IMG/VR virus record: IMGVR_UViG_3300030397_000312
Coordinates: 1 to 57,093 of that record
Length of the DNA stretch: 57,093 bases
Source: a virus
Lineage: Duplodnaviria > Caudoviricetes
Direction: 5' to 3' (one strand)
Below the pieces are notes generated by a model. The model was not told the DNA's origin. It ran no database searches and saw only the letters and a program-made list of their open reading frames with translations. A program made the translations under genes and the position numbers. Positions 2,361 to 49,047 of this stretch are shown here, piece after piece. The first letter of the stretch is position 1. Every line of letters starts with the position of its first letter.

Positions 2361-2670
2361 TCCCCTGTTCTTCTAATATCTTCTCCGCCTTGCGAATGAA
2401 TCCTGCCTGGAGTGGGAGATTTGACTGCGCGGCTATGATGCAATCATAATAGGTCAGGCGATTGCGAATCATCCATTCCCACATTTGCTCCTGTGTGGCT
2501 TCGTCTCCAATCACACTCTTTGCATCAATCTCTGCGGCTTGGATACGTTTATCTAAATCAATCAAATCGTCTCTGAGTTGTGGATGCTCTGCGAAGACTT
2601 CACGAATCATATCGTGTCGGCTCTCTTCCTTGGTTGATAAGTCTTTCAGGACTTCTAATAGTTCTTTCAT
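2209..2670 (-). CDS. hypothetical protein
   Basis: ATGA-coupled to the upstream gene; acidic tail. Confidence 0.55.
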   Translation of the reverse strand: MKELLEVLKDLSTKEESRHDMIREVFAEHPQLRDDLIDLDKRIQAAEIDAKSVIGDEATQEQMWEWMIRNRLTYYDCIIAAQSNLPLQAGFIRKAEKILEEQGNDNAETQEEDDAEWFPVSGGQWGDLSFDLSDINDQGDNSSGDDDNTDQDK

Positions 2671-2969
2671 TTCTTATGTCTCACTATTCCCTGTTCGTCA
2701 GGCTTCTCCCATTTACGTTGCTTATTGATTTTCATCTTCTCGCGGACTTCATTGATTAAGTCTGACCCTGTAAGATTTGCTACGGTACAGAGCTGTATTA
2801 AAAGTATCATTACATCTGCGTATTCTGATTTGTCTCGCGGGTCGGCAAGTATTTCATCAAGCTCCTCCTTGATGTGATTACAAATACCCTCGGCTGTGGG
2901 ATTAGGAAAGGTCTCCAGTCCCCAGCGCGACACATCCTGCCACATTAAGTCAAATTCTCTACTCATCAT
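2667..2969 (-). CDS. DUF550 / MazG-like dATP/dGTP pyrophosphohydrolase
   Basis: WGLETFP...HIKEELDEI...EYADVMILL...KMKINKQRKW; start re-called to MMSREF. Confidence 0.8.
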   Translation of the reverse strand: MMSREFDLMWQDVSRWGLETFPNPTAEGICNHIKEELDEILADPRDKSEYADVMILLIQLCTVANLTGSDLINEVREKMKINKQRKWEKPDEQGIVRHKK

Positions 2970-3996
2970 CAGTACTTCCGCTAAGCTCAGTCTCCTTATA
3001 GCGTTGGATAACCATTGGTAAGATAATTGCCTGGTCTGCCTCATATAGCTCATTGTCCTCTCGCCAGTGATCACAGATAGCTTCCTTGCTATCATACTCA
3101 CGATCACCACACTTCCATGTGCCACGTCCGTGGACATAGCCTACCATACGTCCAAAATTCCGCCATGCTTCATAGCTGTCGATCCATCCTGGGCGAAATC
3201 CATCCTTAATATATTGATAGAGATTAAATTTCCCACTGAGACCGCCTGGCCCACCGAGATTACTCTCTACACTAAAACTAAGCTCTACTTTTGGCTTATG
3301 CTTAACGGCTTTCTCCGTAATGCTGTCTTTCGCCCATGCATTAATCATACGAATACGAGTTGCAGCAAGATACATCTGCGCCTGCCCACCAGGGAGAATT
3401 GGTTTCGCGAGCGGTGATCCGCCAATCTCGTCACGCTCATGATTTAAGAGGAAGCTAGTATGAGGATTCCCTTCGCGAAGGCGATCACCTTGCTCAGCCA
3501 CAACCTGACGAATGAACTTATTCTGTACGGCTGCTTCTGGTGAATACTGTGCTTCCTCTACTGACTTTGCGAGTGTTGATTTAACGACTAAGCCACGAAG
3601 AGAGTCGGCCACTTGTGCGACTACATTCGGCTCTTCTCGCATGGTCCGTAGCCATGTATCACAGATACGTTCCATATACATTGGCGGATACACTATAAGA
3701 ACATCAGGGTCAGTATTAACACCAATGCTTCTAAAATAATCTTCGTCAAACTTATCCTCCGATGCATACCAGACAATCTCGCGGCCTGGATTCTTGCGTT
3801 GTAACTCTTTAATCATATGCGCTGTGACTGTGGTTTTCCCGCTTTTAAACTTTCCTGACAGAATGGTGATCATCCCCTCAAGAAACCCGCCCCGAAGAGC
3901 CACGTCGAGGTTCGCTATTCGTGTCGGCACGCGAACCAGTTTGGCTCGCGGTAAATTGCGAATGAGTTTGGAGTCGTCCTTCTTTGGTTTTGCCAT
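2959..3996 (-). CDS. RecA/UvsX-like recombinase
   Basis: TRIANLDVALRGG, Walker A GKFKSGKTT, Walker B VADSL, LLNHERDEIG, PGGQA. Confidence 0.85.
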   Translation of the reverse strand: MAKPKKDDSKLIRNLPRAKLVRVPTRIANLDVALRGGFLEGMITILSGKFKSGKTTVTAHMIKELQRKNPGREIVWYASEDKFDEDYFRSIGVNTDPDVLIVYPPMYMERICDTWLRTMREEPNVVAQVADSLRGLVVKSTLAKSVEEAQYSPEAAVQNKFIRQVVAEQGDRLREGNPHTSFLLNHERDEIGGSPLAKPILPGGQAQMYLAATRIRMINAWAKDSITEKAVKHKPKVELSFSVESNLGGPGGLSGKFNLYQYIKDGFRPGWIDSYEAWRNFGRMVGYVHGRGTWKCGDREYDSKEAICDHWREDNELYEADQAIILPMVIQRYKETELSGSTDDE

Positions 3997-4396
3997 GTTT
4001 CTCTCGTAACTTTCTCAGCACTTCATCGGGATCGTCTGCTTTTAGACCTTTCTCGATCTTCTTTTCTTGCTGTGCGAATGCTAATTGCTGGAGGATTTCT
4101 CTCCTGTTTGCGTAGAAAGCGCGGAACGATATTTCCAATCTTCCACCGTATTGCATATACTGCGTCGGCTTACTGAAGGCGAGTCGAAGTGCATCTTTGA
4201 AGACTGGTCCGTGCTCTCGGATAAAGCTTTTAAGATTCGCGAACTCTCTCGCCGTCCACGTAAGACGCAAGGTGGGGTAAAGTTCAGATACCGTGCTACT
4301 AAATATGAGTCGTGCTCGTTCAAAGGTAAGAGGCTTTGCATTGCGTCGTGCATCCTGAGCATCCCATGCAGCGGCGTTTCTTTCTCTGATTCCCAC
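3878..4396 (-). CDS. hypothetical protein
   Basis: GTG at 4396 with GGAG SD; lies between Bet and RecA-like genes. Confidence 0.5.
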   Translation of the reverse strand: MGIRERNAAAWDAQDARRNAKPLTFERARLIFSSTVSELYPTLRLTWTAREFANLKSFIREHGPVFKDALRLAFSKPTQYMQYGGRLEISFRAFYANRREILQQLAFAQQEKKIEKGLKADDPDEVLRKLREKHGKTKEGRLQTHSQFTASQTGSRADTNSEPRRGSSGRVS

Positions 4397-4415
4397 ATAT
4401 ATCTCCAATTCTGTA

Positions 4416-5501
4416 TTACGCAGCAGTAACGCGATCAACCTGCGTACTAAGATCGTCCAGTATTTCCTGCACTTCGTCAGGAAACATCCCATCAATTTCA
4501 TCAATGTTCTTCATTCCTGTTTGTGCTTCGAGTGTTGCATCGAAGGTGGCTTTATCAAATGCGGCAATCGCATCGACCATCTTCTTGATTTCATTCTTCT
4601 GATTATCTGTAGAGAGTGACTCATTGACCACGAGTGCACCGAGATTCTCGTATTTTGCTTGACCTTTTTCCTTTACCGTGAAAGACACTTGAATTGGCGT
4701 ATTATTCTCTAGCACAGCTTTCAAGATATCCTCGTCTACCATTTCTGGGAAGCGGAAGAATGAGAGAGACTTCTCACAAGTAGCCACTGTTTCATCGTCT
4801 CCACCTTGCATCAGATTTACCTTCACGAATCCTGGCGTTGGCCACTTCTGTCCTTCCTTCTTTTGTGGCGACTTAAACTCTAAGAGCTGTCCGTCATAGA
4901 TGATACCTGGCTCTGCACGGAATTCCGGTCCTGGCTCTGGATTCTCTGGAATATCTTTATTAAGTTTATAGGTATCACCTTGATTATCAATGTCGCGCTC
5001 TTGATCTAATTCTTCCATGACGTAGATACCTGAGTAATTAGCTGGGAATCCCTTACGGAGTGCGAGTGCTTCTGCACACTTCGCGAGCTGGCCATACGGC
5101 ATACTCTTCCACATTCCACCGTTGGCATTATACTCAGCCCATCGTGCGGTGCCAGTGAACCCGCAACGGACACCTTCGACCATCTTATAGATAGTGACGT
5201 GTGCGGCGACGATGGACTCACCGTCCATATCGAACTCTGCCTTATCGCAACCAGCATACTTCTCCGTGCGATCAGCAATCAGCCGATAGCCATCAATACC
5301 AACGACAATCATATGTTTTCCGCCACGAGGTAAGAGATAGATTTGTCGTGCGAGTGGATCAAGTCCTGTCCGTTCTATTGCATGAAAAAACTTCGTCAAG
5401 TCTTCCTCGCTCGCCCCCTTTGGGGCATATTTTCTAAAATTCTGCATTTCTTCATCGGTAAAATATTTATCCATCTCCATCTCCTTTCTACTTTCCGCCA
5501 T
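4416..5501 (-). CDS. bet: Red-beta/Bet single-strand annealing protein
   Basis: GLDPLARQIY...VGIDGYRLIADRT...WKSMPYGQLAKCAEALALRKGFP...GIYVMEEL. Confidence 0.9.
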   Translation of the reverse strand: MAESRKEMEMDKYFTDEEMQNFRKYAPKGASEEDLTKFFHAIERTGLDPLARQIYLLPRGGKHMIVVGIDGYRLIADRTEKYAGCDKAEFDMDGESIVAAHVTIYKMVEGVRCGFTGTARWAEYNANGGMWKSMPYGQLAKCAEALALRKGFPANYSGIYVMEELDQERDIDNQGDTYKLNKDIPENPEPGPEFRAEPGIIYDGQLLEFKSPQKKEGQKWPTPGFVKVNLMQGGDDETVATCEKSLSFFRFPEMVDEDILKAVLENNTPIQVSFTVKEKGQAKYENLGALVVNESLSTDNQKNEIKKMVDAIAAFDKATFDATLEAQTGMKNIDEIDGMFPDEVQEILDDLSTQVDRVTAA

Positions 5502-7204: not shown

Positions 7205-10200
7205 CTATTTTCCTCTCTGGAAGTATTGAGCTAATCCGCGAACCTCTTCGTCAGTTCCTTTCTCTATAAGACCTGCTTCTTTCATATCTGTTCGCATATC
7301 TTCTAAGATTTCTCCGACGAGTTTCGTGTCTCCTTCTTCCTCCGTTGTGGCTAAATGTTTATATTGCGCTTTCCATCCTTCAATCTGATCGCCATGCGAT
7401 GGGTTCGCAAAGAAGTCTCGCACCTTCTTCGGGAGCTTAATGGATTTTCCCTTCGTGTTCGATACTTTTGTCTGGCGAACGATCTTCTTTGGCTTATAGC
7501 TCGTAGCCTTACTCTTCGCATCGTCTAATGAGATTGATGCACCAATAATCTTCCCATCTTTTGTTTGCGCTTGCCAGTTTCCCTTTTCCATCACGACTCG
7601 TGCACCACTCTCGTGGATATGCTCGCCGTATGATTGCTCCACCCAGCCTTCAGGGTCTCTCTCGATATGTCTGGATGGTGTACTGGCTGGCGTTACTTTC
7701 TGCGCAGCTTTTTTCACCACCTTCTTCACTGGCCTCTTCTTCGGTGGTTCTACTTTCGGTGGAGTTTCAACTTCTCCCTTTTCCTCTGCTACGCGAGCCT
7801 GTCCTTCTGCTTGCTGCGCTGCTGCCTCGGCTTCTGGAGTTGTCGCTGTAGCGCGAGTCTGCGGTTTCCGTTTCCGCTTCACAGCAGGTTTCTTCGCAGT
7901 GGATTCTGGCGTTGCATCAAATGGCTCAGTTAGGTCTTTCGAGCCAACTGGATTTAATAAACTCCTCTGCTTTTTCGCGGCTTCTTTTTGAGCTGCCTCT
8001 TTTTCATCAGGTAGTGACTCCTTTTCAGCTTTCTTATGTGCATCGAATCGTGCACGAAGCATATTATCGTTGACTTTCTCTTCCGCGACCGCAGCAAGAT
8101 GCTTCAACATATCGTTGTGACGATCTATCATGTCCATATCTGCACTTGGTAAACCTGCATCTATGGCGAATTGCGTCATCCATTCATTGAATGCACTGTT
8201 TCGCCCGCCCTTCTGCAAAGCGCCAAGGTCAATAGTGACAGTACGCTTCTTACCATCGTCATATGTGACATCATTCAGTTGGGCTTCAAGCTTGATCTTA
8301 ATCTGCTTCTTGAGGCGATTCATATTTCGCGAGAAGCTACTACGCTTGTCGGAATCCAACCCTGGTGCGAAATGCTCACGGAAGAGGTACTTCGCAATAT
8401 CTCGCCTTAAGTCTGGACTTGCATTGCGTAAGGCAACAGTCTTCGCTTCACCAAGCCGCCCTTTATATGTTGTGAGCGCTTCATCAGTAATGACAGGAAT
8501 AGCGCGAGCCATCATTGCTCCCTGTGCTTCTGTCTTGATATCCGCATGATCAGCTAAGCCTGCATGACGAGATTCTTTCTTCTTCTCGCGTGGACGTACT
8601 TCTGCTTTCCCACGGTCGGTGACTTGAATCTTTCGATCCTTCCACTCAAAGAGTTCTGTAAATCCAGGTGCGAGGTCTCTGTCGGTATGTGGCTTTGGCG
8701 GAATCATAGCTTCTGGATCAGCTCCAGCAGCTTTCTTCTCTTCGTATGTACGCGGTTTCTTCTTATTCACCTTCGTACCCACATCACCCGTAATCTCTTT
8801 ATAGAGTGGACCTTCACCCTTCACCGCTTTCGGTGTTGGCATCTTATGTTTCTTGCGAAACGCTTCATAAGTTTGCTTATCTGACGCACCAGGAATCTGC
8901 TTCGGTTCCGTTGGCATCCCGACCTGAATATTCTCTTCCTTGAAGTCACGGACTGGTGGTGCCGGGAAGTCTTTCTGTGGAGAATCATGCGTCGTATCAA
9001 CCCATGTGGATGATTGTTTGCGATCACGACGACGATCTAATACCTCTGCTTCCGCAGTTGTGCCACGCATACCAGCACCTAAACGCTTGGCTGCCAGTTG
9101 AATTTCACCAGATCGTTTCCGCGCTTCTCTGACTTGTGCTTTCGTCTGGACACGTTCCTTGAAGCCAGTAGCAGGAATTAATTCCCACTCGCCAGACTCT
9201 TCCATTGCGCGGAGGCGTTGGCTTTCATTGATCCAATCTTCCTTCTTCCACGTCAGCACATCTGGACCAATAGGATCAACACCTTCTAAGATGCTATATT
9301 TGTCAGCACGTTTATTAGAGAATTCCTTGTTCGATGCGGGGCCAAAATACTTACCCATCTGCGTGCGACCAGGCGGAAGTTCAATAGACGAAGCTGTCAC
9401 TAAAGCTGCGGCATCATCTCCAGCCATTGCGCTCTGTACAATACTCTTCCAGTCTCCGTATGGGACTTTCCGTACTTCATCATTGACTTGGACTGGTATC
9501 GCTAGTCGTTTAATAATGTTCTCACGTTGTTTGAGTGCGAGCTGTCGTCGCGCTTGTGAGGTGTCTGGAATCTTATCAGCCGCAATACCCATATCTCTCA
9601 GGAGATCATGTTCCTGCTGAGCGCGGACACTATCATTATCGGTACGCGGGAGAGCGGCCATAAAAGTACGATGGCCATCGTCCTTTGCGCCTTTCTCTAG
9701 CTTCCCCTTTGGTGGTGTCAGTGCCTTCAGAGCCTTCCGCGAGAACTCATTCATCGGAGTGACCTTATCCATCTCCTTGAGAACACTACGTTCTGGCTTT
9801 GCGGCTGGCTCACCTTTCATGCCGGGAGGTACAACAGGGACTACACCAGAAGGAATTGCTACATCTTCACCCGTGTCTTCATCTTCTGCGACAATTTCAC
9901 CAGGCTTATTATAAATATCTTCTAATGCTCCAGCTTTAATACGTTTCCGTACCTTCTCATTGACTAATGAGGCGCGAGCCACATCAAGACTCTTCTCGCC
10001 ATCATCACTAGTAACATTTAAATCAAGCTCTTCCGCGATAGTCAGGAGTTCTGGATCATCTTCCATATACATATTGCGGAGCTGTTTCTTATATGCGGCT
10101 GCACCAGTCTTTGCTGCATTCGATAAGTCTGCCCGCTTGTCAACAGGCACATCTTTCATCGTATCAACTGGCCCTGGAGCCTTCTCTTCGATCACCGATA

Positions 10201-12496
10201 CTGGCGGTGCCTTTGCTTCAGGTCCAGGCAATGCAATAGGCTTCCCTGGCGTTTTATCATCAAGGCGAATCGGTGGCTTCTTGGCTTCTGCGATTTGCTT
10301 ACGAGGCTCAGGTAATGCGGTTCGTTCTGGAATCTCTGTGGCCGTGGTTTCGATATCTGGCTGGCGACCTGGAGGATTAGGTGTTGGACCCTTTGGATCA
10401 ATGACTTCATCCGGCTCAATCGGACCTGGGCCTTTTGGCTCTGGACCTTTTGGCGTATCTTCTACATCTGCTTCCCACGTTTCATCTGGTTCGGCGGTTG
10501 TGAGATCGGTGCTTCCTGCACCAGCTCCTCCTACTAAACCTAAGAGGAAGGATGGGAGTAACGTCATACCGAAGTCACCTGCGGCACGACCAAAGTCAAT
10601 ATCTATATCACCGAAATAATCTTGTAAGACGGATTGTAAACCTTCTTGGAGAGATTCAAATCCTGATCCGCGAGCGGCTAAACCTGCAATCTGGCCAGCG
10701 CTTTTCTTCGCTCCACCAAACTTGGTGATATCATACAATCGCGAGAATCTATTCAGCGTCGTATTCAGAACAAAGTTTGCAGCCGCGAGTTTATTCGCAG
10801 CATCCAACGCTTCTTCTTGTTCCATCTTCCCAGACGCGACCTGCTGATTGTAAAAATCACCAACAATCGTCATGGTCTCAATGAAGCCAGATGCCGTAGC
10901 GCCCATTGTCGCAGCAAGCTGTGGCGCATTAGGAATTAATTTTAATGTCGCCGCACCAGCACCTAAACCAGTTCCAATGAACGGCAAGAAGTTACCAATA
11001 ATCCCCACAGTCTGCTCTAAGAAGTTTGGATCATCTGGTTGCAGTTGACGCAATCGTTCTTGGAGCATATCAGCCGCTTCGCTAGTGAAGGTGCCAAAGC
11101 CGGTATCAACACCAATCAAATCTTCAATATACTTCGGCGCGTGCATTAATGAGGCAACTGGACTCACCGCTCCAGCCGTAAACATTCGCTGTGCACGATC
11201 TAAGACAGGATGTTTATACGGGAACCCTGGCTTCTCTTCTTCTGGAAATTCTGGCGCACCTGTTGGCACGTCGCCACCAAGGACATTCTTATCCCCTGGC
11301 TTGTCGATTTCCAGCGTATCGTCCATTGACCACGGTGCAGCACGTCGAGCTGGATCATCTACTAGTGGAATCTCCATGCCACTATCTTGTGCTTCTGGAT
11401 AGAGTGCATTATCACCAGCATCGGCAAAACGTGTAGCGTCTTCTACGTCGCCCTTCGAGCGATCTGGCCAATCACTGCGAGCAAACTCTTCTTCTGCTTC
11501 CGTTGGAATATCGGGGAGTTTAATAGACGGCGATTCATGCGGGATAGTTGCCATCGAACCACCCTTACGGGCACGATCTGCGGTATCTGCCATCTCACCT
11601 GTATAGGGCTTCCCACTTTGCGCACCTAAGAGTGTGAATGGGCCTTCTGGTATGAGCGCATGAGTATTCGGTGGTAGCGTCTTCCCTGATTTAGCGTACT
11701 CCGCAACAGTTGTATCACGACCAAGCTGATCACGGAATGCACGGGCACGTTTGATATGCGAATAGAGGTCTCTAACTGCACGTTTGTTTGGCGCTACTTG
11801 ACCAGCATATTCAAGGAAGTCTTTTCCACCGCGTGCTTTTTGCATAAGACGTTCTGCCGTCGGCACTCCAAGCACCCACGCGGTTGAGGCAAAATTAGCG
11901 ATATCCTCTTCATCAGTAAACCATCGCTTTGCTGCGGGGAGGATTTCTTTATTAAGAAACGCCGCAGACATTGCCATATTCTTTTCTTTATTGAGCGGAT
12001 CATACTTATCATCTACAGGGCGTTTGAAGTCTTTATACTGTCCTTGGCGATTCCATATCGCCTTCCCCGTTCGATCAATAAACTGACCTAATCCCTTGGC
12101 GCTAGAATCTCGATTCTTTGCATCAGCGCGAAAGTCTGACTCAGCCTTATAAATCGGAGTAATAATGCGACGTGCTAATGGATCAGGAAAGTATCGGGCG
12201 AGCATCTCCGAGGTTTCTTCATCTAAACCTACGACTGTCCCTTCCTCTCTCCCTGGGGCTTTATATGGTGGAGCGATACTCTCTTCATGTGCTAAAAGAG
12301 GCTTCACAGGGGGAGCGATAGATCGCGCCTCCTCTGGACTTTCGAGCGGCTTCCCGGTATCGGGACGTAGCGCTGCAATGTCTGTACTGACATCCCAGCC
12401 AAACTTTGATCCGGCACGTTCGAGTGCGCGAATCTTTCCCTCTGTATCGGATTCTAAGAATCGTCGGTCTTGCTTAAACTCATGTAGACTAGCCAT
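7205..12496 (-). CDS. large internal virion/ejection protein with lytic transglycosylase (SLT) domain
   Basis: AESDFRADAKN..SSAKGLGQFI...DPLNKEKN; Gly/Ala-rich hydrophobic middle; long K/P-rich disordered C-terminal part. Confidence 0.75.
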   Translation of the reverse strand: MASLHEFKQDRRFLESDTEGKIRALERAGSKFGWDVSTDIAALRPDTGKPLESPEEARSIAPPVKPLLAHEESIAPPYKAPGREEGTVVGLDEETSEMLARYFPDPLARRIITPIYKAESDFRADAKNRDSSAKGLGQFIDRTGKAIWNRQGQYKDFKRPVDDKYDPLNKEKNMAMSAAFLNKEILPAAKRWFTDEEDIANFASTAWVLGVPTAERLMQKARGGKDFLEYAGQVAPNKRAVRDLYSHIKRARAFRDQLGRDTTVAEYAKSGKTLPPNTHALIPEGPFTLLGAQSGKPYTGEMADTADRARKGGSMATIPHESPSIKLPDIPTEAEEEFARSDWPDRSKGDVEDATRFADAGDNALYPEAQDSGMEIPLVDDPARRAAPWSMDDTLEIDKPGDKNVLGGDVPTGAPEFPEEEKPGFPYKHPVLDRAQRMFTAGAVSPVASLMHAPKYIEDLIGVDTGFGTFTSEAADMLQERLRQLQPDDPNFLEQTVGIIGNFLPFIGTGLGAGAATLKLIPNAPQLAATMGATASGFIETMTIVGDFYNQQVASGKMEQEEALDAANKLAAANFVLNTTLNRFSRLYDITKFGGAKKSAGQIAGLAARGSGFESLQEGLQSVLQDYFGDIDIDFGRAAGDFGMTLLPSFLLGLVGGAGAGSTDLTTAEPDETWEADVEDTPKGPEPKGPGPIEPDEVIDPKGPTPNPPGRQPDIETTATEIPERTALPEPRKQIAEAKKPPIRLDDKTPGKPIALPGPEAKAPPVSVIEEKAPGPVDTMKDVPVDKRADLSNAAKTGAAAYKKQLRNMYMEDDPELLTIAEELDLNVTSDDGEKSLDVARASLVNEKVRKRIKAGALEDIYNKPGEIVAEDEDTGEDVAIPSGVVPVVPPGMKGEPAAKPERSVLKEMDKVTPMNEFSRKALKALTPPKGKLEKGAKDDGHRTFMAALPRTDNDSVRAQQEHDLLRDMGIAADKIPDTSQARRQLALKQRENIIKRLAIPVQVNDEVRKVPYGDWKSIVQSAMAGDDAAALVTASSIELPPGRTQMGKYFGPASNKEFSNKRADKYSILEGVDPIGPDVLTWKKEDWINESQRLRAMEESGEWELIPATGFKERVQTKAQVREARKRSGEIQLAAKRLGAGMRGTTAEAEVLDRRRDRKQSSTWVDTTHDSPQKDFPAPPVRDFKEENIQVGMPTEPKQIPGASDKQTYEAFRKKHKMPTPKAVKGEGPLYKEITGDVGTKVNKKKPRTYEEKKAAGADPEAMIPPKPHTDRDLAPGFTELFEWKDRKIQVTDRGKAEVRPREKKKESRHAGLADHADIKTEAQGAMMARAIPVITDEALTTYKGRLGEAKTVALRNASPDLRRDIAKYLFREHFAPGLDSDKRSSFSRNMNRLKKQIKIKLEAQLNDVTYDDGKKRTVTIDLGALQKGGRNSAFNEWMTQFAIDAGLPSADMDMIDRHNDMLKHLAAVAEEKVNDNMLRARFDAHKKAEKESLPDEKEAAQKEAAKKQRSLLNPVGSKDLTEPFDATPESTAKKPAVKRKRKPQTRATATTPEAEAAAQQAEGQARVAEEKGEVETPPKVEPPKKRPVKKVVKKAAQKVTPASTPSRHIERDPEGWVEQSYGEHIHESGARVVMEKGNWQAQTKDGKIIGASISLDDAKSKATSYKPKKIVRQTKVSNTKGKSIKLPKKVRDFFANPSHGDQIEGWKAQYKHLATTEEEGDTKLVGEILEDMRTDMKEAGLIEKGTDEEVRGLAQYFQRGK

Positions 12497-25590: not shown

Positions 25591-27336
25591 TTATGAATTC
25601 TCTAATACGTCAATCCGCGCTTCTAAGTCTTCAATCGTCTGATTGAGTTCCTGGATAGCCTTGACAAGTAAAGCTGTCATGTGACGATACTTCACACCAC
25701 CCAATTCCCCATTCGCATATGTCGCTAATATTGGATTGATAGACTCCACTTCTTCAGCAATAAAACCAAGGTCTCGCTGTCCACCCTGATCTTCTGTCCA
25801 TGTATATTCAACTGGTCGTAATTCCATCAGCGTGTCCAGCCCTAACGGTAAGTCTTCTACATCTTCTTTGAATTTCGACAATGAGGTACAACTTGTCAGA
25901 TAGCTAATGCCCGAATTATCCCAACAGACCGTGGCTGAATTTGCGGTGGCAAATTTACCAACTTGCACATCTCCATCAGCTTCAAGTAATAAAGCTGTTG
26001 TTGTTGCGGAAAAGTCCGCATCTGCAACTGTGCTATCATTAAACATAAATACGACATTATCACTGCCATTTCCATGTACCATGCCAAACCCCTGGAATCC
26101 GGCATTAGAATTCTTCAGCGTATTCGCCGTAGCGGAATGAATAGCATGTAATGCAAAAAATGGTGCACCATTACCAGAATAATGACCCCATGCACTGGTG
26201 TAATCTGCGTTCGTATGTTCCGTCATGAAACTATTTCGTCCATCTTCAGAAAGAACACCTATGTCAGTATTAGCTGCGGTGGCTTGGATAATATGCAATC
26301 GTGCTTCAGGACTATCCGTATTGATACCAATATCTCCATCACCTTTCACGCGGAAAAAGTCCGTAACGCCGGACTGATCCTTAACAAGGAGCGCGGCATC
26401 AGAGCTGTTCGTTCCAGCAGTAATACGTACCCCAAAACTTTCACCTGAGTCTGTATCTTGCGATTCGACACGAACCACGTATTGATTATCAATCGCCGTT
26501 GCAATATCCAAGACCGCATCTGGAGTCGTATCGCCAATACCAATCACACCGCTTTGCAAGATACGCAGCGCTTCTGAATCTGCACCAGTTGCAAGGGCCA
26601 GATCAGCGGAAGATTTTTGCGTGCCGACTGTCAATAAGTCAGCATCATGATTCCAATATATCGCAGCTCCTAGACTATCACTTGGTGAACCAAACCCAAT
26701 ACTTGCATTATTTGCATCAGGTGTTAACACTGTAATACCGCCTGCTGCATTTTGCTCTACCACTAAGTCGTCGAAATTGGCTGCTGCTGTCACTGACCCA
26801 GCACTATTCGTTAAGGCGTGCAATGTGCCATCTGGCTCGACGTTAATACCCACGCGACGAGAAGCACCAACAAGCCGAAGAATAGAAGTCTCACTCCCGC
26901 CATCCATAACATAGAATTCCATGTCTGCATCTTCTGATCCGTCCGTGACTGTGGTCAGATTCACTTCAATACGTGCTTGTCGCTGCGAACCACCGGCATC
27001 TTCAACTTTAATTCCTAACGATCCACCAATACCAGCCTGCGGCGTCCCTGAAGTGGTCTTCTCAATATCAAGTACAACAGTATTGCTGCTATTATTAGCA
27101 TCATCGACCGTTGGTGCAGATGTGTCATCAGTCCCATATCCTAATTGCCCATTCGCACCAACACACTCAACAACCTCTCCGACCGTACATGTTCCGCCTT
27201 TTGTCGCGCCACCATCAATATCAAGAATATTGATTGGATCGTCGGCACTCTTACTATGAGTCAAAGAGTGATCAGCCGCGTGGACTGGTGCAGCTATTAA
27301 AAACGCCGCTAACAATGTTGCTACTATTTTCTTCAT
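25591..27336 (-). CDS. tail fibre with C-terminal peptidase S74 intramolecular chaperone and N-terminal signal-peptide-like sequence
   Basis: Repeats of the GxIGIxTxxPxAxLHI type; S..KFKEDV...LRPVEYTW...GFIAEEVE...VKY..LLVKAIQEL; start MKKIVATLLAAFLIAAPVHA. Confidence 0.85.
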   Translation of the reverse strand: MKKIVATLLAAFLIAAPVHAADHSLTHSKSADDPINILDIDGGATKGGTCTVGEVVECVGANGQLGYGTDDTSAPTVDDANNSSNTVVLDIEKTTSGTPQAGIGGSLGIKVEDAGGSQRQARIEVNLTTVTDGSEDADMEFYVMDGGSETSILRLVGASRRVGINVEPDGTLHALTNSAGSVTAAANFDDLVVEQNAAGGITVLTPDANNASIGFGSPSDSLGAAIYWNHDADLLTVGTQKSSADLALATGADSEALRILQSGVIGIGDTTPDAVLDIATAIDNQYVVRVESQDTDSGESFGVRITAGTNSSDAALLVKDQSGVTDFFRVKGDGDIGINTDSPEARLHIIQATAANTDIGVLSEDGRNSFMTEHTNADYTSAWGHYSGNGAPFFALHAIHSATANTLKNSNAGFQGFGMVHGNGSDNVVFMFNDSTVADADFSATTTALLLEADGDVQVGKFATANSATVCWDNSGISYLTSCTSLSKFKEDVEDLPLGLDTLMELRPVEYTWTEDQGGQRDLGFIAEEVESINPILATYANGELGGVKYRHMTALLVKAIQELNQTIEDLEARIDVLENS

Positions 27337-30959: not shown

Positions 30960-32350
30960 TAGTCATTCCCGCTTCTACGTTGATCTACAATCTTATGAGA
31001 TGCGACCTCTTTCTGTACTGGTCCTGGCATAAATCGTCGATCTCGCCGCAATCCTATCGCTTCCATAAACTGCTGCATGAGTCCCTGCACACGCTCGCTA
31101 ATCTTTCCTTCAGAGATGAGTGCGAGAGAGGCAGCATAGAGTGGCAGTAGGTTATGCCATACGGGGTCCACTGAGGGTGGCGCATATTTATCCGTCGCCC
31201 CATCTGGGACTTTCAAGCGTGTCACCTTAGCCGTAAAGCTCGCATTTGGCACGGGATAGAACCCCATTATTGTACCGCCAATCATATAATAGAACTCTGG
31301 CGTTCCAGTCGTTGAGTTCCAATTTGCATCGAGTGCTTGTAAATGTGCAATATGAGATTCTTGTAATGCGACATTATTAATCGCGACTCTGAGTGGCGCG
31401 ATAAAATCCGAGAATGTATTATGTATTTTATAGGTCGCCGTGCCACTCGTAATGGACAGATCGCCTGTTTCCTCTCCTAGTGCGCGATAGATGGTGACAA
31501 ATAATTCCGCTTGCTCTAGGAAGACACGCACTTGCGTCTCTGTATGGAAAAGTCCATCCTCATCATCAATTAATCGCTGCGTTCGCTCAATCAGCGTACT
31601 CCATGACTCTTCCTGTGCACCAAGCAAGTAGAAGTTAATATGATCTGATGCTATAGGATTCATTCCTAATGTAATCACATCGCCAGTATCATCTGAAATA
31701 TATTCTGTTGCTGCCGCGAGATAATCTGTCCGCTCATCAAAGAGCTGACCATTCAGTGTTGTGAGCAATCGCGGCTTATCTCCACTAATCTGCCCTGTCT
31801 TTGTTAAGGTATATGCAGCATTGGTGCCATCCTGCGAGCCAGTAAACGCGAGTGTTGCGGTATTCGTATCTGTTGGGACCGGCAAAAAAGCTTCAATACG
31901 ATCCGTCCGAAATGGCGCTGTCCAGAAGGATATACTATCCGTATCCGTGCCAGTTGTGTACGTTATTTCATTTGCACCTGGTCCAGATGCAACCTCTTCA
32001 CATGCGAGACCATTAAAGAAGATTAGTGCATTCGTACTACTTGGTTTTGCTTTAATCGTAAATGTCTGATTACTATTGTCGATATCGCCAGTCAGTTCTG
32101 TTCTCCGCAGCGACGTGAGAATATTGTCCTGCACAAACGCCCAGAATCCATCTCCTGAATTAGGCGCAAGGCCCACCTCTATAGCTGTTCCCGTAACGGT
32201 ACATTCCCCTACTCCTGGAGTACCTCCGACAACATCGAGGATAAGTCCATTATGAATAATGAGCACTAATCCACCTGTCGCTGGCGTTGTGTCCAACGTA
32301 AAGGAAGTAATTGCTCCATCTGGAGATTCTGAAAAACCAGCCTTAACCAT
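30959..32350 (-). CDS. tail ring protein with three N-terminal beta-sandwich repeats
   Basis: Three repeats G..DG.N..FT....NG; C-terminal adaptor domain GTPEFYY...GFYPVPN. Confidence 0.6.
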   Translation of the reverse strand: MVKAGFSESPDGAITSFTLDTTPATGGLVLIIHNGLILDVVGGTPGVGECTVTGTAIEVGLAPNSGDGFWAFVQDNILTSLRRTELTGDIDNSNQTFTIKAKPSSTNALIFFNGLACEEVASGPGANEITYTTGTDTDSISFWTAPFRTDRIEAFLPVPTDTNTATLAFTGSQDGTNAAYTLTKTGQISGDKPRLLTTLNGQLFDERTDYLAAATEYISDDTGDVITLGMNPIASDHINFYLLGAQEESWSTLIERTQRLIDDEDGLFHTETQVRVFLEQAELFVTIYRALGEETGDLSITSGTATYKIHNTFSDFIAPLRVAINNVALQESHIAHLQALDANWNSTTGTPEFYYMIGGTIMGFYPVPNASFTAKVTRLKVPDGATDKYAPPSVDPVWHNLLPLYAASLALISEGKISERVQGLMQQFMEAIGLRRDRRFMPGPVQKEVASHKIVDQRRSGND

Positions 32351-32535
32351 TATCTCAACCTGAAATCGCGACCCTTTTTCTTCTCTAATGCACGACGGAT
32401 ATTCCCTGACCCGCGGAGCTTTTCATTGCCTTCGTACTCGTGCGTACCCTTCTTGAATCGTTTCTTCTTCTTTGATTCTAGTCGTTTACCAAACTCTGGC
32501 GGAAATTTACTTTCTCTATCCTTTAATCGCCCCAT
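32350..32535 (-). CDS. small K/R-rich protein
   Basis: 61 aa, TAATG-coupled on both sides. Confidence 0.6.
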   Translation of the reverse strand: MGRLKDRESKFPPEFGKRLESKKKKRFKKGTHEYEGNEKLRGSGNIRRALEKKKGRDFRLR

Positions 32536-32975: not shown

Positions 32976-33356
32976 TTAATACCCCCACCTATGTGGATAA
33001 TTTTGTGCGCCCATCATCTGCTGTACTGTCTGCTGCGGATAGCGTTGTCGCATATACTGTTGCATCGCCATGCGAATCTGATCTGTCATCATCTGATGTT
33101 GACTCTGGCCTGGCGGCTGCGCGGGTTGCGACTGTACCTGCTGGGGTGATGCGCCATTCATCTGCTTCTGCATTTGCTGCTGTGGCGTATTATGTTGTCC
33201 ATATTGCTGCGGATTCAGCATTGGATTCGCCTGTGCATTCTTATTATTCGGATTCGGGAACTGGTCCATATTATGCATCATCTTATTCGCATAACCCCAG
33301 CCTCGGAACGAGAAGGGATTCCGTGGAAACCCTTGCCCGAGAAAATCCTTCTCCAT
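32976..33356 (-). CDS. Gln/Met/Asn-rich low-complexity protein
   Basis: ORF; likely leaderless start MEKDF 7 nt after a -10 box (track start is 33368). Confidence 0.55.
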   Translation of the reverse strand: MEKDFLGQGFPRNPFSFRGWGYANKMMHNMDQFPNPNNKNAQANPMLNPQQYGQHNTPQQQMQKQMNGASPQQVQSQPAQPPGQSQHQMMTDQIRMAMQQYMRQRYPQQTVQQMMGAQNYPHRWGY

Positions 33357-33363
33357 CTTATTA

Positions 33364-33399
33364 ATCATAATATACCTTCACTATGCTAGTCAAGGAAAA
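33364..33399 (-). promoter_or_regulatory. conserved phage promoter
   Basis: TTTTCC-TTGACT-N18-TATGAT. Confidence 0.65.
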
Positions 33400-33412
33400 T
33401 TTACTATTCAAA

Positions 33413-34327
33413 CTATAAGTCCAAAAGCAAGTCGTGACGTGACGCAAAATCGTCACTAACTTCATTACCTCTTTCGCTGTTCCTCTGCGCATGGGGAGCA
33501 CCAAAGGCATTTATATCTCTCATTTGTAATTCTTGCAATGTCGCTATAGATTGCTGCTCCCATTTATCCGCTACCGAGAACCATTTCTGAGCATCTTGTG
33601 GGTCTTTCTCAGCTAAGGCAATGGACATCGCCGCCTGAGCTGCGGTAGATTTAATGAGTACAGTGACAATCATTTCCTCCAAGGTAGTGCTATTAGAAGT
33701 AAGAGCAAACGACAACATCTTCATTCCGACATAATTGAAATGATCCTGTGTATTCGGCACTGGCCACAATTCAATAATCCGTCCGCCACCACTCCCGAAC
33801 CCACTATACGAGTAATAGAGCGGGTCTCCTGAAGATTGCCGCGACTCATCTAAGTCTGCGAGGTCTTCATGGGTGACTTCAATAAGGTCTCGCCCACCTC
33901 CAGAGATGGATATAAGATACCAAACCGCCGGATCAAGCTCGTACCGAGCCTGGTTAAGTGTGTAAGTCTTGCTGGCACCCGTGGTCCCACCATAATTGTA
34001 CTTGAGTGTGCCAGTTGTCGTATTAGTGAATAAGTTAACCCGGTAAAAGTCCGAGTCAACCCGTAGGTATCCATCGTCATAATCACTCGTAAATGCAGTT
34101 GACGCACCCGCGATAGTCTTCGCTGCGTTTGTTAATGTTATCGTACCTCCAGAAAGCTCCGCAAAGGTGTTAAATTCGCCATCTAATTTGGCGAATGACC
34201 ATCCCCACGTATTCGCGAGTTCGCGGTACTGTGTCTCCAAGAGCGCACGAATAGCAGGCCCTTCGAGCTTATGGTGTACCATTGAAAGGATACGCCCTTC
34301 AATCTCTTTAACAGTCAGTCCCCCCAT
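33413..34327 (-). CDS. head-tail adaptor / tail tubular protein A-like
   Basis: WGWSFA, SGDPLYY...IELWPVPN; inserted GTITLTN..IAGASTAFTS domain. Confidence 0.65.
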   Translation of the reverse strand: MGGLTVKEIEGRILSMVHHKLEGPAIRALLETQYRELANTWGWSFAKLDGEFNTFAELSGGTITLTNAAKTIAGASTAFTSDYDDGYLRVDSDFYRVNLFTNTTTGTLKYNYGGTTGASKTYTLNQARYELDPAVWYLISISGGGRDLIEVTHEDLADLDESRQSSGDPLYYSYSGFGSGGGRIIELWPVPNTQDHFNYVGMKMLSFALTSNSTTLEEMIVTVLIKSTAAQAAMSIALAEKDPQDAQKWFSVADKWEQQSIATLQELQMRDINAFGAPHAQRNSERGNEVSDDFASRHDLLLDL

Positions 34328-35034
34328 TAGCTATCTTCCTTTCGTAAAATCCTTGACATACTATTAAACCTGTGATATAATATCCCCATATTATCAATCA
34401 AGGAGTTAGTATGGGAAAACTTATTGATAGAGTTGGGCAGCATTTCGGTCGTCTCGTAGTTTTGGAACGAGCGGCTAATAGAGGGAAAAAGACCGCCTGG
34501 ATATGCGAATGCACATGCGGCAACAAAACAACCGTCACTAGCACCAGCTTGGTAGCTGGGGATACTGCTAGTTGCGGGTGCCTTGCTCTCGATACGCGGA
34601 CTAAACATAACATGTCCCAATATCCTGAATATCGAGTATGGCTCGCCGCTAAGAGTCGTTGTTTCAATATTCGGGATAGATTCTATAGTCGATACGGTGG
34701 GCGCGGAATCACTATGGATAAAGATTGGGCTGCATCGTTTGAAATATTTATTCGAGATATAGGTAGACGGCCTTCGTCTCAACATTCTTTGGATAGGATT
34801 GATAACGACAGGGGCTACATGTCCGATAATTGTCGATGGGCAACACGTATTGAGCAGTCTCACAATACCTCCGCCAATCGCAATTTGACCCATAATAACA
34901 TCACCCTCCCATTGGAGGAATGGGCACGAAGAATTGGCATCACTGGTAATGCTCTGCGATGGCGCATTGGAGCCTGGGGACAGGACAAAGCCCTGAGTAC
35001 TCCTAAAGGGTAATTTAGCTGTCAGTCCTGCCAT
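34327..35034 (-). CDS. antisense bridging ORF across the HNH insertion (expression unproven)
   Basis: Starts MAGLTAK 3 nt after the upstream stop and ends TAATG on the ring-gene start. Confidence 0.35.
   Translation of the reverse strand: MAGLTAKLPFRSTQGFVLSPGSNAPSQSITSDANSSCPFLQWEGDVIMGQIAIGGGIVRLLNTCCPSTIIGHVAPVVINPIQRMLRRRPSTYISNKYFKRCSPIFIHSDSAPTVSTIESIPNIETTTLSGEPYSIFRILGHVMFSPRIESKAPATSSIPSYQAGASDGCFVAACAFAYPGGLFPSISRSFQNYETTEMLPNSINKFSHTNSLIDNMGILYHRFNSMSRILRKEDS
34353..34381 (+). promoter_or_regulatory. consensus sigma70 promoter for the inverted HNH gene
   Basis: TTGACA-N17-TATAAT followed by AAGGAG SD. Confidence 0.8.
34411..35013 (+). CDS. HNH-type homing endonuclease, inverted orientation
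   Basis: FGRLVV..WICECTCG..SCGC..RYGGRGI..SLDRIDNDRGYMSDNCRWAT. Confidence 0.9.
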   Translation: MGKLIDRVGQHFGRLVVLERAANRGKKTAWICECTCGNKTTVTSTSLVAGDTASCGCLALDTRTKHNMSQYPEYRVWLAAKSRCFNIRDRFYSRYGGRGITMDKDWAASFEIFIRDIGRRPSSQHSLDRIDNDRGYMSDNCRWATRIEQSHNTSANRNLTHNNITLPLEEWARRIGITGNALRWRIGAWGQDKALSTPKG

Positions 35035-35037
35035 AAT

Positions 35038-35346
35038 TTAATCCAGTTGTTCACTAATCAGCCAGCCGCCGACTGGTGGTACAATCACCTTTGCGGCACT
35101 CCATAGAACACCCGAAATCGTGGTCGGGTCACTTCCTTTACTCTCTATAATCACCGCTGGTGGCGGTAATGCTGGACATGGTTCTGGTTGCTTCACACAT
35201 TTCTGTAAGTATTTCGTTGCATATTTATTATAAAGTAATGCAGAATCTTCTATTGCCTCATTGCCACGCAATGCTTGCGACGTCGAACATCCACTCAATA
35301 TAATCATGAGGGTCGCGATTAAAATAATCTTAAGAGCCGTTATCAT
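35038..35346 (-). CDS. lipoprotein, o-spanin-like
   Basis: Lipobox LSG-C; Pro/Cys-rich segment. Confidence 0.6.
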   Translation of the reverse strand: MITALKIILIATLMIILSGCSTSQALRGNEAIEDSALLYNKYATKYLQKCVKQPEPCPALPPPAVIIESKGSDPTTISGVLWSAAKVIVPPVGGWLISEQLD

Positions 35347-35674
35347 ACCTATCCGCCTCTAGGCGATCTAACCGTTTCTCATTTTGTTCTACAATCGCTA
35401 ATACCCTACCGAGCTGCTGTTGAGACTTAAGAAATGTTTCATTCATTTTTTCAATACGCCTAAGTCCATCATTAAGTTTTGCCTTATCGCGAACGTATGG
35501 AGCTTGATGTTCTAGTTGCTCTGTAGTCACAAAATTCGCGGCTGCCTGTGTATATTCTAATCGTAAATCTTGAATATCTCCCTTAATATGAATAACGATT
35601 CCAAGATACATAGCCGCGCCCGTTAGTAGCGCTGTTGTAATTACAGGCAATAAGTGGTCTTTCCAATTTGTCAT
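35330..35674 (-). CDS. single-TM coiled-coil protein (i-spanin- or holin-like)
   Basis: N-terminal TM then heptads; overlaps the lipoprotein gene. Confidence 0.55.
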   Translation of the reverse strand: MTNWKDHLLPVITTALLTGAAMYLGIVIHIKGDIQDLRLEYTQAAANFVTTEQLEHQAPYVRDKAKLNDGLRRIEKMNETFLKSQQQLGRVLAIVEQNEKRLDRLEADRYDNGS

Positions 35675-35823
35675 TATCGTCTCCGAGGGCGAAAAATCGG
35701 CTTATACGTGGCTGTCACAGCGACATCGCCTGCACCAGCTTGACCCGAACTCCAGGTCCAAATCGTTCGCAACTGATAATGTTGAGGCTGGTAAATATTT
35801 CCATATGTCCATTGGACAATCAT
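35674..35823 (-). CDS. 49-aa protein ending FRPRRR
   Basis: Manual translation; TAATG-coupled on both sides. Confidence 0.6.
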   Translation of the reverse strand: MIVQWTYGNIYQPQHYQLRTIWTWSSGQAGAGDVAVTATYKPIFRPRRR

Positions 35824-46927: not shown

Positions 46928-47215
46928 TTACTCTTTATCGAGCATTTTTCCCTCTTTATATTTTTCTTCAGTAACAGAATCTATAATATTAACACTATGC
47001 GGCGACCCTGCATGGTAATTCACTTGGATTTTGCCAAAGAATTCAGGTCGTCGCGTGCGGTCACGTAATTCTTTATATTCTGCGTATGGGATATTATATG
47101 GAATATTCATGCGGACCCCGCGATCATTGACGTGGATTTCGCATACTTTCCCCATCTTCCCATCATCGAGCATTTGGTCGATAAGTTCGTGTAACCATTC
47201 TCTATTCTTCATCAT
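46928..47215 (-). CDS. hypothetical protein (DUF2292-like C-terminal half)
   Basis: FFGKIQVNYHAGSPHSVNI pattern. Confidence 0.5.
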   Translation of the reverse strand: MMKNREWLHELIDQMLDDGKMGKVCEIHVNDRGVRMNIPYNIPYAEYKELRDRTRRPEFFGKIQVNYHAGSPHSVNIIDSVTEEKYKEGKMLDKE

Positions 47216-49047
47216 TATTGTGCTCCTGCTCCCGGCGTTGGCGGCGAATCAGTAGGCTTTTGCGCAATCGGGACACCCTGCGGTGCGGCGGCTGCTGCCT
47301 GCTCCATTCGCGCTTGATTAACGAGCTGTTCCGCTTCTAAGAAGCCAGCAATTTCCATGACCTTTGATCCAGGCATTAAGCCCATATTAAACCAGTTTGC
47401 CGCAGCAATGATTTCTTGTTGTTTTGAGATAGACAATGAAGACATCGGTTTGACGCGGAATCGGAAATCCCTGAACGCATTATGCCAATCTTTACCCTTC
47501 AGGGCTTTGATCAGTGCATCTCGTTCAAACATATACGGGATAATGCGGCCATCGTCTCCGACTGTCTGCATAATTCTATTCTCATCGTAATACTGAAGTA
47601 CGCGAGCAATCCACTTCTGACCACAGCGCTGCATAAATGCTTCCATTTCACGTGCTTGCGCACGCACGATGGTTTGTGCAGCCATCTGAAGATTCTCAAT
47701 CGCGACACCAGAATCCGACATGCCCTTACCCTGGAGAGCCTCAGAGAGGCCCGTCACGTGCTCAACCGCAGTTATCATAAACTGCATAAGATTGAACACG
47801 GACGCGGGAAGGGCTGGCGGCCCCTCACGTCGTAACTCTGCGCCAGGACGTTTCTTAACAATCATACCCGGCTTATCATTCAGTCGATCCCACTGTTCGG
47901 TAGTGAGCGCATTCACATCACCAACCCAGATCAGATTGTTCATGTGCAGCGTATTCTCGACCATTGCTCCACCGAGTTTATTAATAATATCCTGGAGCTT
48001 CATGAGGTCTTTGATCTCTGATCGACCCCACGGATGTTCGATTTCCATTCCCCACGACATCATCTCCATAGGGAATAATTTGTCTACGTATGGATTTTCC
48101 TCGTCTATGAGTATCTTCCCGCCAGAACGGACAATATGTCTCCCGCCTTGGAAGACGAGATCATCTTTTCCGCGAGGCGCTTGTTTTGAGCGGGCGAGAC
48201 GCTCATTGATGTAATCCTGATCGCTTTGCGAAAGCTCACCCATCCGGCGATAATCCTTCAGCCAGAACTCCTGCAATACGGCTTTTGGTATTGCGGAAGA
48301 TTCCCATCGGACACGCTCATTTGGATTCGCAATTTGACGCACGTGTTCCTTCAGTGCGGAAATAGCATTAGAACCTCCGCGAACAGCTCCATCATGAAAT
48401 GTACTATATTTGGAAAACTTCGGGTCTGCGGAGACATCGACACCAAAACGAAACTTAATCTCGTCTAGTGATCGCAACTCCTCTAGGACTACATAATTAG
48501 CGGCTTGAATATCTTTCGCCATGACCACGGACGGGTCCATAACGAAGTGGCGTGGATCAATAGGGGCAAATCCAATATCACCGCGACCCCAATCAAGGGT
48601 GCGATCCCACGGCATATTGACAATACACGAGCCAAATATCTGGGCAGTATACAGCATATGCATCAATGTTTCCATGATGCCACGCTCGTCCCACCACGAA
48701 AGCGAGAGCTTAGACATAAGCTCGGACGCTTCTATGAGATTCGTATCATTATACGGCTCAATATTGATGACTGGCTTGGTGTCTGTCAGGAGAGCGGCTT
48801 TCCTCTTGATCGAGGAGCCGACAATATTCATCGTAAAAGGAATACGATGACGGGGAATGTTATCAGGCCACTGATCGCCACGTGCGTATTGCACGAGCGT
48901 TTCCCAATCTTTGTCTAAGTGACGGCGAGATTGGACACCTTCTTCAGAAAGGTGATCTAGGTACTCATTAGTCAGCGCATCGCGAGAATGTTGCTCGGAC
49001 GGCGTGTACGATAAGGCTTTCTTAATTTCATCTGCTACATTTGCCAT
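47215..49047 (-). CDS. portal protein (P22-like)
   Basis: YARGDQW, DLMKLQDIINK, EHVTGLSEALQG..SGVAI. Confidence 0.85.
   Translation of the reverse strand: MANVADEIKKALSYTPSEQHSRDALTNEYLDHLSEEGVQSRRHLDKDWETLVQYARGDQWPDNIPRHRIPFTMNIVGSSIKRKAALLTDTKPVINIEPYNDTNLIEASELMSKLSLSWWDERGIMETLMHMLYTAQIFGSCIVNMPWDRTLDWGRGDIGFAPIDPRHFVMDPSVVMAKDIQAANYVVLEELRSLDEIKFRFGVDVSADPKFSKYSTFHDGAVRGGSNAISALKEHVRQIANPNERVRWESSAIPKAVLQEFWLKDYRRMGELSQSDQDYINERLARSKQAPRGKDDLVFQGGRHIVRSGGKILIDEENPYVDKLFPMEMMSWGMEIEHPWGRSEIKDLMKLQDIINKLGGAMVENTLHMNNLIWVGDVNALTTEQWDRLNDKPGMIVKKRPGAELRREGPPALPASVFNLMQFMITAVEHVTGLSEALQGKGMSDSGVAIENLQMAAQTIVRAQAREMEAFMQRCGQKWIARVLQYYDENRIMQTVGDDGRIIPYMFERDALIKALKGKDWHNAFRDFRFRVKPMSSLSISKQQEIIAAANWFNMGLMPGSKVMEIAGFLEAEQLVNQARMEQAAAAAPQGVPIAQKPTDSPPTPGAGAQ

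Follow-up and report, generated by a model that had tools for sequence, protein, structure and literature searches.

We analysed a viral contig of 57,093 b from an aquatic metagenome (IMG/VR record IMGVR_UViG_3300030397_000312, completeness estimate 74%; the whole stretch is called the window below), in which a free-standing HNH-family gene lies backwards within a late operon. Almost all long open reading frames (ORFs) of the window are on the minus strand, and the HNH gene is the only plus-strand gene within the structural module. Opposite to it the operon strand carries an ORF of 235 codons, hereafter the bridge ORF, which covers the HNH gene together with its promoter and is joined to the operon genes on both sides. 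The features of the locus, in amino acids (aa) where proteins are concerned, are the following.

33413..34327, minus strand: adaptor ("ring") gene, 304 aa, downstream of the HNH insert
34325..34329, minus strand: TAATG, the bridge stop and adaptor start, in which the bridge TAA (34329-34327) has one base in common with the adaptor ATG
34327..35034, minus strand: bridge ORF, 235 codons plus TAA, codon-aligned and antisense to the HNH gene, its 5' leader and its promoter
34335..34341, minus strand: Shine-Dalgarno sequence AAGGAAG of the adaptor gene, read from the sequence, within the last codons of the bridge ORF
34353..34381, plus strand: HNH promoter, TTGACA-17-TATAAT with a TG before the -10 element, sigma-70 score 12/12, facing the operon
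34400..34405, plus strand: Shine-Dalgarno sequence AAGGAG of the HNH gene, read from the sequence, 5 nt before the HNH ATG
34411..35013, plus strand: HNH-family gene, free-standing, 200 aa, phrog_374
35014..35034, minus strand: relic adaptor start, ATG plus six codons (M-A-G-L-T-A-K), adjoining the HNH stop and now the start of the bridge ORF
35038..35346, minus strand: upstream operon gene, predicted lipoprotein of 102 aa with a signal peptide and an L-S-G-C lipobox, o-spanin-like

The bridge ORF has the two junctions of a coupled cistron, with its start beside the upstream stop and its stop on the downstream start. The bridge ATG at 35034 is 3 nt past the TAA of the lipoprotein gene, and between the HNH gene and the adaptor start the frame crosses 28 codons of promoter and leader (31% GC) without a stop. 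In our own list of minus-strand ORFs, 28 of the 51 junctions overlap or are at most 10 nt apart, and the 1-base TAATG-type overlap occurs at six of the 51, the bridge-adaptor junction included.

Alignment of the 21-mers at 35034-35014 and 34327-34307 gave 17 identities out of 21, and the sequences to either side of them show no similarity; the chance of at least 14 matches in the 18 positions past the ATG is about 4e-6. The present start of the adaptor reads M-G-G-L-T-V-K and the sole relative of the adaptor among 5.8 billion proteins, P0002, begins M-A-E-L-T-L-K, so that both 7-codon copies are taken to be adaptor 5' ends. P0002 is encoded on a contig of 1285 b and is 62% identical to the adaptor over its full length. 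Both proteins carry the Pfam family SU10_adaptor (PF24175), which the window protein matches over residues 119-271 with an E-value of 4.8e-7 and 30.8 bits (cut-off 27). To judge from these sequences, the cassette would have entered seven codons into the adaptor gene, and the four differences between the two 21-mers would fit either its age or a donor of another lineage. The first-pass annotation of this DNA had described a 21-nt copy of the ring-gene start next to the HNH stop, a 235-codon minus frame open across the HNH gene and its promoter and ending in TAATG, and a perfect promoter directed against the operon; the sequence and the ORF coordinates bear out all three, and what was called the ring gene there is the gene with the SU10_adaptor match.

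The bridge is codon-aligned with the HNH gene, so that any stop in it would correspond to a TTA, CTA or TCA codon in that gene. None of the 27 Leu and Ser codons of the HNH gene (13 Leu, 14 Ser) is one of the three, against a share of 0.27 in the phage. Because the HNH gene is without TTA, CTA and TCA, the operon messenger RNA (mRNA) has one unbroken frame of 235 codons, and the codon-aligned reverse frame meets no stop along almost the entire forward gene, as in ambigram coding. Ambigrammatic narnaviruses likewise avoid the three codons that read as stops on the opposite strand. Phage codon usage was taken from 51 minus-strand ORFs (16718 codons), non-nested and picked by the author from 105 ORFs; the three codons make up 3.67% of all codons in this reference and TTA makes up 30% of the Leu codons. 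At phage usage the probability of finding none of the three in the HNH gene is 1.9e-4, and none of the 51 reference ORFs lacks them altogether. The avoidance is specific to these codons and to this frame. The three trinucleotides occur 0 times in the codon-aligned offset and 14 and 4 times in the other two, while the control codons ending in A are used at 29/95 (0.305) compared with 0.292 in the phage.

The frame would also be open if the gene had come from a donor that seldom uses TTA, CTA and TCA, being GC-rich or biased in some other way, and the gene does belong to a mobile cassette whose closest homologue is only 53% identical. On the contrary, the GC content of the HNH gene (0.476, compared with 0.465 for the window), its GC content at third codon positions (0.435 compared with 0.412) and its control codons are all near the phage values, and the target trinucleotides are common at the two other offsets, so foreign codon usage is a most improbable explanation. 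The frame could likewise be a chance shadow ORF, given that the codon-aligned antisense frame is the one most often open and that a long example was picked post hoc. Within long genes of the window, TTA, CTA and TCA are absent from four stretches of 200 or more codons, and the per-codon model thus understates chance; plus-strand ORFs of about 200 aa also stand opposite real genes elsewhere in the window. Against this stand the low probability at phage usage, the fact that no reference ORF is without the three codons, the normal control codons, and a frame that begins at the relic ATG, stays open through the AT-rich promoter codons and ends in TAATG.

Homologues of the HNH gene and their flanks were collected from viral contigs in four scans, and the HNH ORFs were located by a profile of 43 family members. 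ORFs with a hidden Markov model score below 80, with fewer than 120 profile positions covered or running off the contig were dropped; a parsing artefact (L049) and an ORF of 110 codons (L062) had been dropped earlier, before counting. The 279 viral-contig loci yielded 211 distinct HNH ORFs in 203 clusters at 80% identity. Each copy was assigned to an orientation class according to which strand carries the closest ORF (80 aa or longer) on either side, and expected counts were derived from the codon usage of the flanks. The numbers of copies with a stop-free antisense frame were as follows.

Backward HNH: 11 of 34 (expected 3.52)
Co-oriented HNH: 3 of 104 (expected 6.27)
Mixed-orientation HNH: 3 of 54 (expected 4.37)
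Contig-edge HNH: 0 of 11 (expected 0.47)

Stop-free frames are associated with the backward orientation (backward versus co-oriented, Fisher p 1.0e-5). At a GC content below 0.56 the frame was stop-free in 8 of 19 backward copies, where 0.60 were expected (Poisson-binomial P 9e-11), versus 1 of 78 co-oriented ones, and the eight backward genes contain the target codons at 0 of 163 positions and the control NNA codons at 233 of 724. Co-oriented homologues have 3.27 antisense stops per 100 codons, slightly above their own flanks. Since the co-oriented copies carry stops, the antisense frame of the family is not open regardless of context; the first-pass annotation had proposed looking for such stops in homologous HNHs of other contexts and had named a generally open frame as a result that would refute its reading. 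The stops are present, with few co-oriented copies free of them. The comparison indicates selection on the reverse frame, with heterogeneity between the scans. A chance origin draws some support from high-GC contexts, in which stop-free frames are expected, and for the three stop-free copies in the co-oriented class the frequencies from the flanks do not exceed 0.008; the excess of backward stop-free copies at low GC content speaks the other way, and chance alone is very unlikely.

The junctions were compared in a set of 12 stop-free backward loci, the window included. An in-frame start is found within -4..+3 nt of the upstream stop in 8 of the 12, and in six both junctions are tight (the window, L005, L041, L016, L235 and L015). 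The frames of L005 and L041 have an ATG 2 nt past the upstream stop and a TAATG on the downstream start, close to the plan of the window, while L016 and L235 have ATGA-type overlaps. The L104 stop was left uncounted, since that ORF in fact ends elsewhere. In two control frames, starts were so placed in 1-3 of 12 loci and stops in 2-4 of 12; in backward loci with more than three antisense stops the corresponding counts were 3/12 and 2/12, with both ends tight in 1/12. A 7-codon relic serves as the bridge start only in the window among the 12 loci.

These loci are largely independent of each other. The flanks of the stop-free backward loci are varied structural genes (e.g. portal and protease, tail and tail, major head), and they are mutually unrelated save in three cases: the two HNH copies of L005 have the intervening gene in common, L041 and L044 have downstream genes with 27% identity, and there is a single match across sides, between L037 and L235. 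The HNHs themselves are 35-54% identical and lie dispersed over trees of poor resolution. A sub-lineage of "backward specialists" was considered and set aside, as the trees did not bear out the clustering. A quick IQ-TREE phylogeny of 79 rows gave 11 changes for 14 rows, equalled or undercut by 36 of 500 shuffles, and a FastTree phylogeny of 204 rows gave 11 changes for 12 rows, with 101 of 500 shuffles equally low. The nearest neighbours of backward stop-free copies belonged to the same class in 3 cases versus 0.65 expected, a weak signal (P 0.049).

Several further copies of the family are worth recording. In L005 two backward HNH homologues (2599-3111 and 4001-4636) are arranged around one gene of 230 aa, and both antisense frames are stop-free; L005 and the window also have in common an 11-nt motif at the -35 element of the HNH promoter. 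L088, the nearest HNH neighbour of the window, was examined as a case of the same insertion site and rejected, its downstream protein being unlike the adaptor (E 5.2). In Gordonia phage CherryTomatoes (L281, PP978796.1) a backward full-length HNH homologue of about 205 aa lies at ~2480-3100 between minus-strand genes; its only annotation is gene 177, a hypothetical protein of 123 aa, and gene 178, of 23 aa, is placed inside it on the opposite strand. The GC content of this copy is high, and hence it is uninformative on the antisense frame. The HNH copies of phages Phab24 and Ab69 are co-oriented. In Acinetobacter phage Phab24 (L282, MZ477002.1) the homologue is in two pieces (2474-3295) and is flanked by two ORFs of 1059 nt and 135 nt that are both annotated as thymidylate synthase, a pair which looks like a split td gene.

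The reading that we favour, and consider probable, is that the stop-free HNH gene lets the ribosomes of the operon translate across the backward insert. A homing-endonuclease cassette with its own promoter and ribosome-binding site would have entered a tight late (structural/lysis) operon backwards, leaving the old adaptor start 3 nt past the stop of the upstream lipoprotein gene, while the adaptor now begins at the second 7-codon copy. Ribosomes finishing the upstream gene would re-initiate at the old ATG, cross the 0.7-kb insert and terminate on the adaptor start, and the C-rich, G-poor antisense stretch of the operon RNA would thereby never be bare. The outcome would be that Rho-type polarity, RNA decay and pairing with the HNH mRNA are avoided and that the downstream gene is kept in the translation chain; the act of translation, and not the 235-aa product, would be the function. 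C-rich, G-poor RNA favours Rho loading. Over the bridge, the operon RNA has a mean C-G of +0.040, and 22% of its 78-nt windows reach at least 0.12, compared with a mean of -0.055 and 0.8% of such windows in the structural module. We infer from the locus and its relatives both that the bridge frame is translated and that this translation is of benefit.

The first-pass annotation had argued that the antisense ORF keeps ribosomes on the mRNA, thereby preserving translational coupling and avoiding polarity. This interpretation is supported by the family comparison, the codon-specific avoidance and the junctions. Strict coupling is not required, because the adaptor has a good Shine-Dalgarno sequence of its own, 8-14 nt upstream of its ATG. 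More probably, the benefit would be that ribosomes covering the RNA guard it against polarity or decay.

The following observations weigh against ribosome passage as the explanation. Initiation at the adaptor does not need coupling, and the old ATG is without a clear Shine-Dalgarno sequence, so that translation of the bridge would depend on re-initiation. Orientation was called from raw ORFs and not from curated annotation. Most of the excess of stop-free frames was contributed by the first scan, in which hits were ranked by similarity to the window HNH (8 of 17 backward versus 1 of 42 co-oriented copies stop-free); among loci found by none but the later three scans, 3 of 17 backward copies (2.65 expected) and 2 of 62 co-oriented ones were stop-free (p 0.064), and the median stop density of the later backward copies was not lowered (Mann-Whitney p 0.80). 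The stop-free share differed between tight and loose embedding with p 0.06 only (10 of 23 and 1 of 11, respectively). Four backward copies, L088, L039, L137 and L109, carry 7-15 antisense stops. Finally, an HNH-free relative of the phage was not found in searches of phages, viral contigs and metagenome contigs.

The difference between the first and the later scans may reflect either lineage or mere noise in the sampling; the stop-free copies of the backward class score somewhat closer to the window HNH, with a median of 144 bits versus 127 and 123. As for the four copies with many stops, each has at least one flank matching a structural PHROG family and all except L039 are tightly embedded. 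Since backward copies with many stops do sit in real structural operons, the bridge is one solution and not a requirement.

Gene callers and protein databases point to another possibility, that the 235-aa product is itself functional, either as a regulator or inhibitor of the endonuclease or as a virion or lysis factor. On three contigs holding the region the gene callers called the bridge on two and the HNH gene on one, and a HMMER search of 1.84 billion cluster representatives gave 641 that match the bridge product at E <=0.001, 8 of them at <=1e-10. For the reverse ORF of ambigrammatic narnaviruses, mass spectrometry is reported to give evidence of translation (PMC8316113). The bridge product was aligned with 14 of 150 listed hits, chosen for long matched stretches, and the invariant columns were P38, P66, P103, P132, P179 and L60. 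With bridge codon j opposite HNH codon 209-j, these columns are exactly the antisense of W171, W143, W106, W77, W30 and Q149 of the HNH protein. The 14 aligned hits are thus antisense translations of HNH genes, and the conservation of the bridge protein is explained by the HNH, whose conserved Trp and Gln codons it mirrors. The product has no match in Pfam or PHROGs, and the parts of the bridge outside the HNH gene vary between loci. Co-oriented relatives break the frame about three times per 100 codons, so the bridge was not inherited as a second gene from the ancestor of the family. A functional product is, taken together, very unlikely. At least 641 protein clusters in public data match the bridge product, the aligned ones being antisense HNH products, and on the two contigs where the bridge was called the endonuclease gene was missed. 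Gene callers often choose the wrong strand at this HNH family.

The HNH gene is a separate ORF with its own promoter and AAGGAG, that is, with signals for stand-alone expression, and members of the family are found between unrelated genes in many phages. The perfect sigma-70 site is unique in the 57-kb window, where 0.02 were expected. As the promoter faces the operon, an early HNH transcript and the late operon transcript would be fully complementary. The open frame could then have been selected for the endonuclease, with ribosomes and RNA polymerases from the operon side silencing the HNH gene late or with antisense translation controlling the pairing of the mRNAs. The perfect host-type promoter facing the operon is in keeping with this, and the T4 homing endonucleases are tightly regulated, with segD antisense to its neighbours (review PMC2988022). 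Convergent transcription alone would suffice for such control, without need of an open frame or of a start and stop placed at the gene boundaries, and we regard a benefit to the endonuclease as unlikely.

The protein matches phrog_374, "HNH endonuclease", over residues 1-183 (E 2.3e-60) and phrog_3377 (E 4.5e-41), and its identity as an HNH endonuclease follows this PHROG annotation. It is a putative homing endonuclease, for which site-specific cleavage and homing are predicted. Relatives occur in 1165 phage records. Searches with the Pfam HNH model, in NCBIfam and by sequence in the PDB gave no match to the protein, so this common phage "HNH" family stands outside the coverage of Pfam, NCBIfam and solved structures by sequence. 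An AlphaFold2 model had a mean predicted local distance difference test score of 89.3; Foldseek gave no match to it in the PDB at E <=0.001, and the top match of a wide VIA-align search was the HNH restriction enzyme PacI (3m7k_A), with a middling Z of 6.0 and a root-mean-square deviation of 2.4 over 76 residues within model residues 66-156. In the family alignment of 43 sequences the conserved residues are D128 (at least 90%), an invariant R129, N140, C141, R142, W143, Q149 and N152. The invariant Arg of the D-R-I-D block would, in the presumed register of the motif, occupy the position of the first His in an HNH_3-type motif.

Searches bearing on the history of the insertion were negative within their scopes. 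A megablast of 33400-35700 against phages gave no match, and neither did a tblastn search of the adaptor against phages, adaptor patterns in viral contigs and metagenome contigs, or the window HNH as a single query in viral contigs. Four DNA runs of one study contain the region or part of it, and three of them may be its source; their contigs had no joint that skips the HNH gene, and all contigs and runs holding the region have the insert. A low-depth contig of 523 b from the fourth run of that study spans 34690-35180, i.e. the end of the HNH gene and part of the upstream gene, with four differences. Two of these are at 35014 and 35150; the T>A change at 35014 affects the last base of the relic, and the bridge frame stays open.

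The structural module spans about 7 to 49 kb of the window. Further genes in it, among them the one that overlaps the lipoprotein gene, are the following.

47215-49047: portal gene, structural module
35330-35674, operon strand: membrane/coiled-coil gene, 114 aa, i-spanin-like, overlapping the lipoprotein gene
25591-27336: tail-fibre gene, structural module
7205-12496: internal virion protein gene with a transglycosylase part, structural module

Judged from sequence features, the genes of 114 aa and 102 aa would form a spanin-like pair, which lies well inside the structural module and immediately precedes the insert on the operon strand. In Pfam the 102-aa lipoprotein gave a weak match to LPAM_1 (E 0.0057) that is under the cut-off, and there was no family match backing the spanin reading of the pair. 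A low-complexity protein of 130 aa rich in Gln, Pro and Asn is encoded at 32976-33368; it has no PHROG match, one codon that is TTA, CTA or TCA, and an ORF of 123 aa (32993-33364) opposite to it. A very basic, Lys/Arg-rich ORF of 61 aa at 32350-32535, flanked by structural genes, could encode a small nucleic-acid-binding virion protein.

In its setting the insert resembles the seg and mob genes of T4-type phages. The sections of the review used here (PMC2988022) describe the integration of such endonucleases into host expression and their tight regulation, and give the overlap of mobE with nrdA as UAAUGA. In both cases a selfish endonuclease is wedged between phage genes or into their ends, with its own regulatory signals, start/stop overlaps with its neighbours and a fit to the expression programme. 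Unlike the seg and mob genes as described in those sections, the HNH gene studied here has a stop-free antisense frame that would relay translation across a backward gene, and its complement strand is a single ORF joined to both neighbours. The second parallel is with narnaviruses, in which a reverse ORF without known homology spans nearly the whole gene of the RNA-dependent RNA polymerase, and translation itself is proposed to matter, with ribosomes protecting the RNA (Retallack et al. 2021, PMC8316113). Common to both are the long reverse ORF over a forward gene and a translation that is possibly protective. The present system is a 57-kb DNA phage contig and not a single-gene RNA virus, its forward gene is a mobile parasite, and its reverse frame belongs to a host operon mRNA, where it is stitched to the stop and the start of the neighbours; the likeness lies in the ambigram-like coding and not in membership of that virus group. 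Bacterial coupling and polarity provide the third parallel, in the TAATG overlap, the start 3 nt past a stop and the C-rich, G-poor stretch that is exposed if untranslated, but unlike in ordinary coupled cistrons the middle "gene" is the complement of another gene. A full-text search of one literature library listed no paper that reports, for phages, a homing endonuclease gene lying backwards under an antisense frame without stops. The locus combines a homing endonuclease gene with ambigram-like coding and operon coupling, each of a known kind.

Homing endonuclease genes are thought to persist only where their cost to the host is low, and an insert lying backwards among tightly packed genes would be expected to interrupt the translation chain and to leave 0.7 kb of RNA bare. 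If the bridge is translated as proposed, the parasite gene is written as an ambigram through which the ribosomes of the host operon run, and a host-type early promoter can be used against a late operon at little cost to the phage. Hundreds of antisense-HNH "proteins" in the databases would then be such bridges, and the locus would be a DNA-phage counterpart of the ambigrammatic narnaviruses, with an ORF whose function is being translated. Whether stop-free antisense coding is a general adaptation of homing endonucleases that invade phage operons backwards, evolved many times, seems to us evenly balanced. By keeping the complement of its coding sequence open, a mobile gene would limit the harm to its host in a new way, and the locus would show plainly how selection can act on a gene's non-coding strand.

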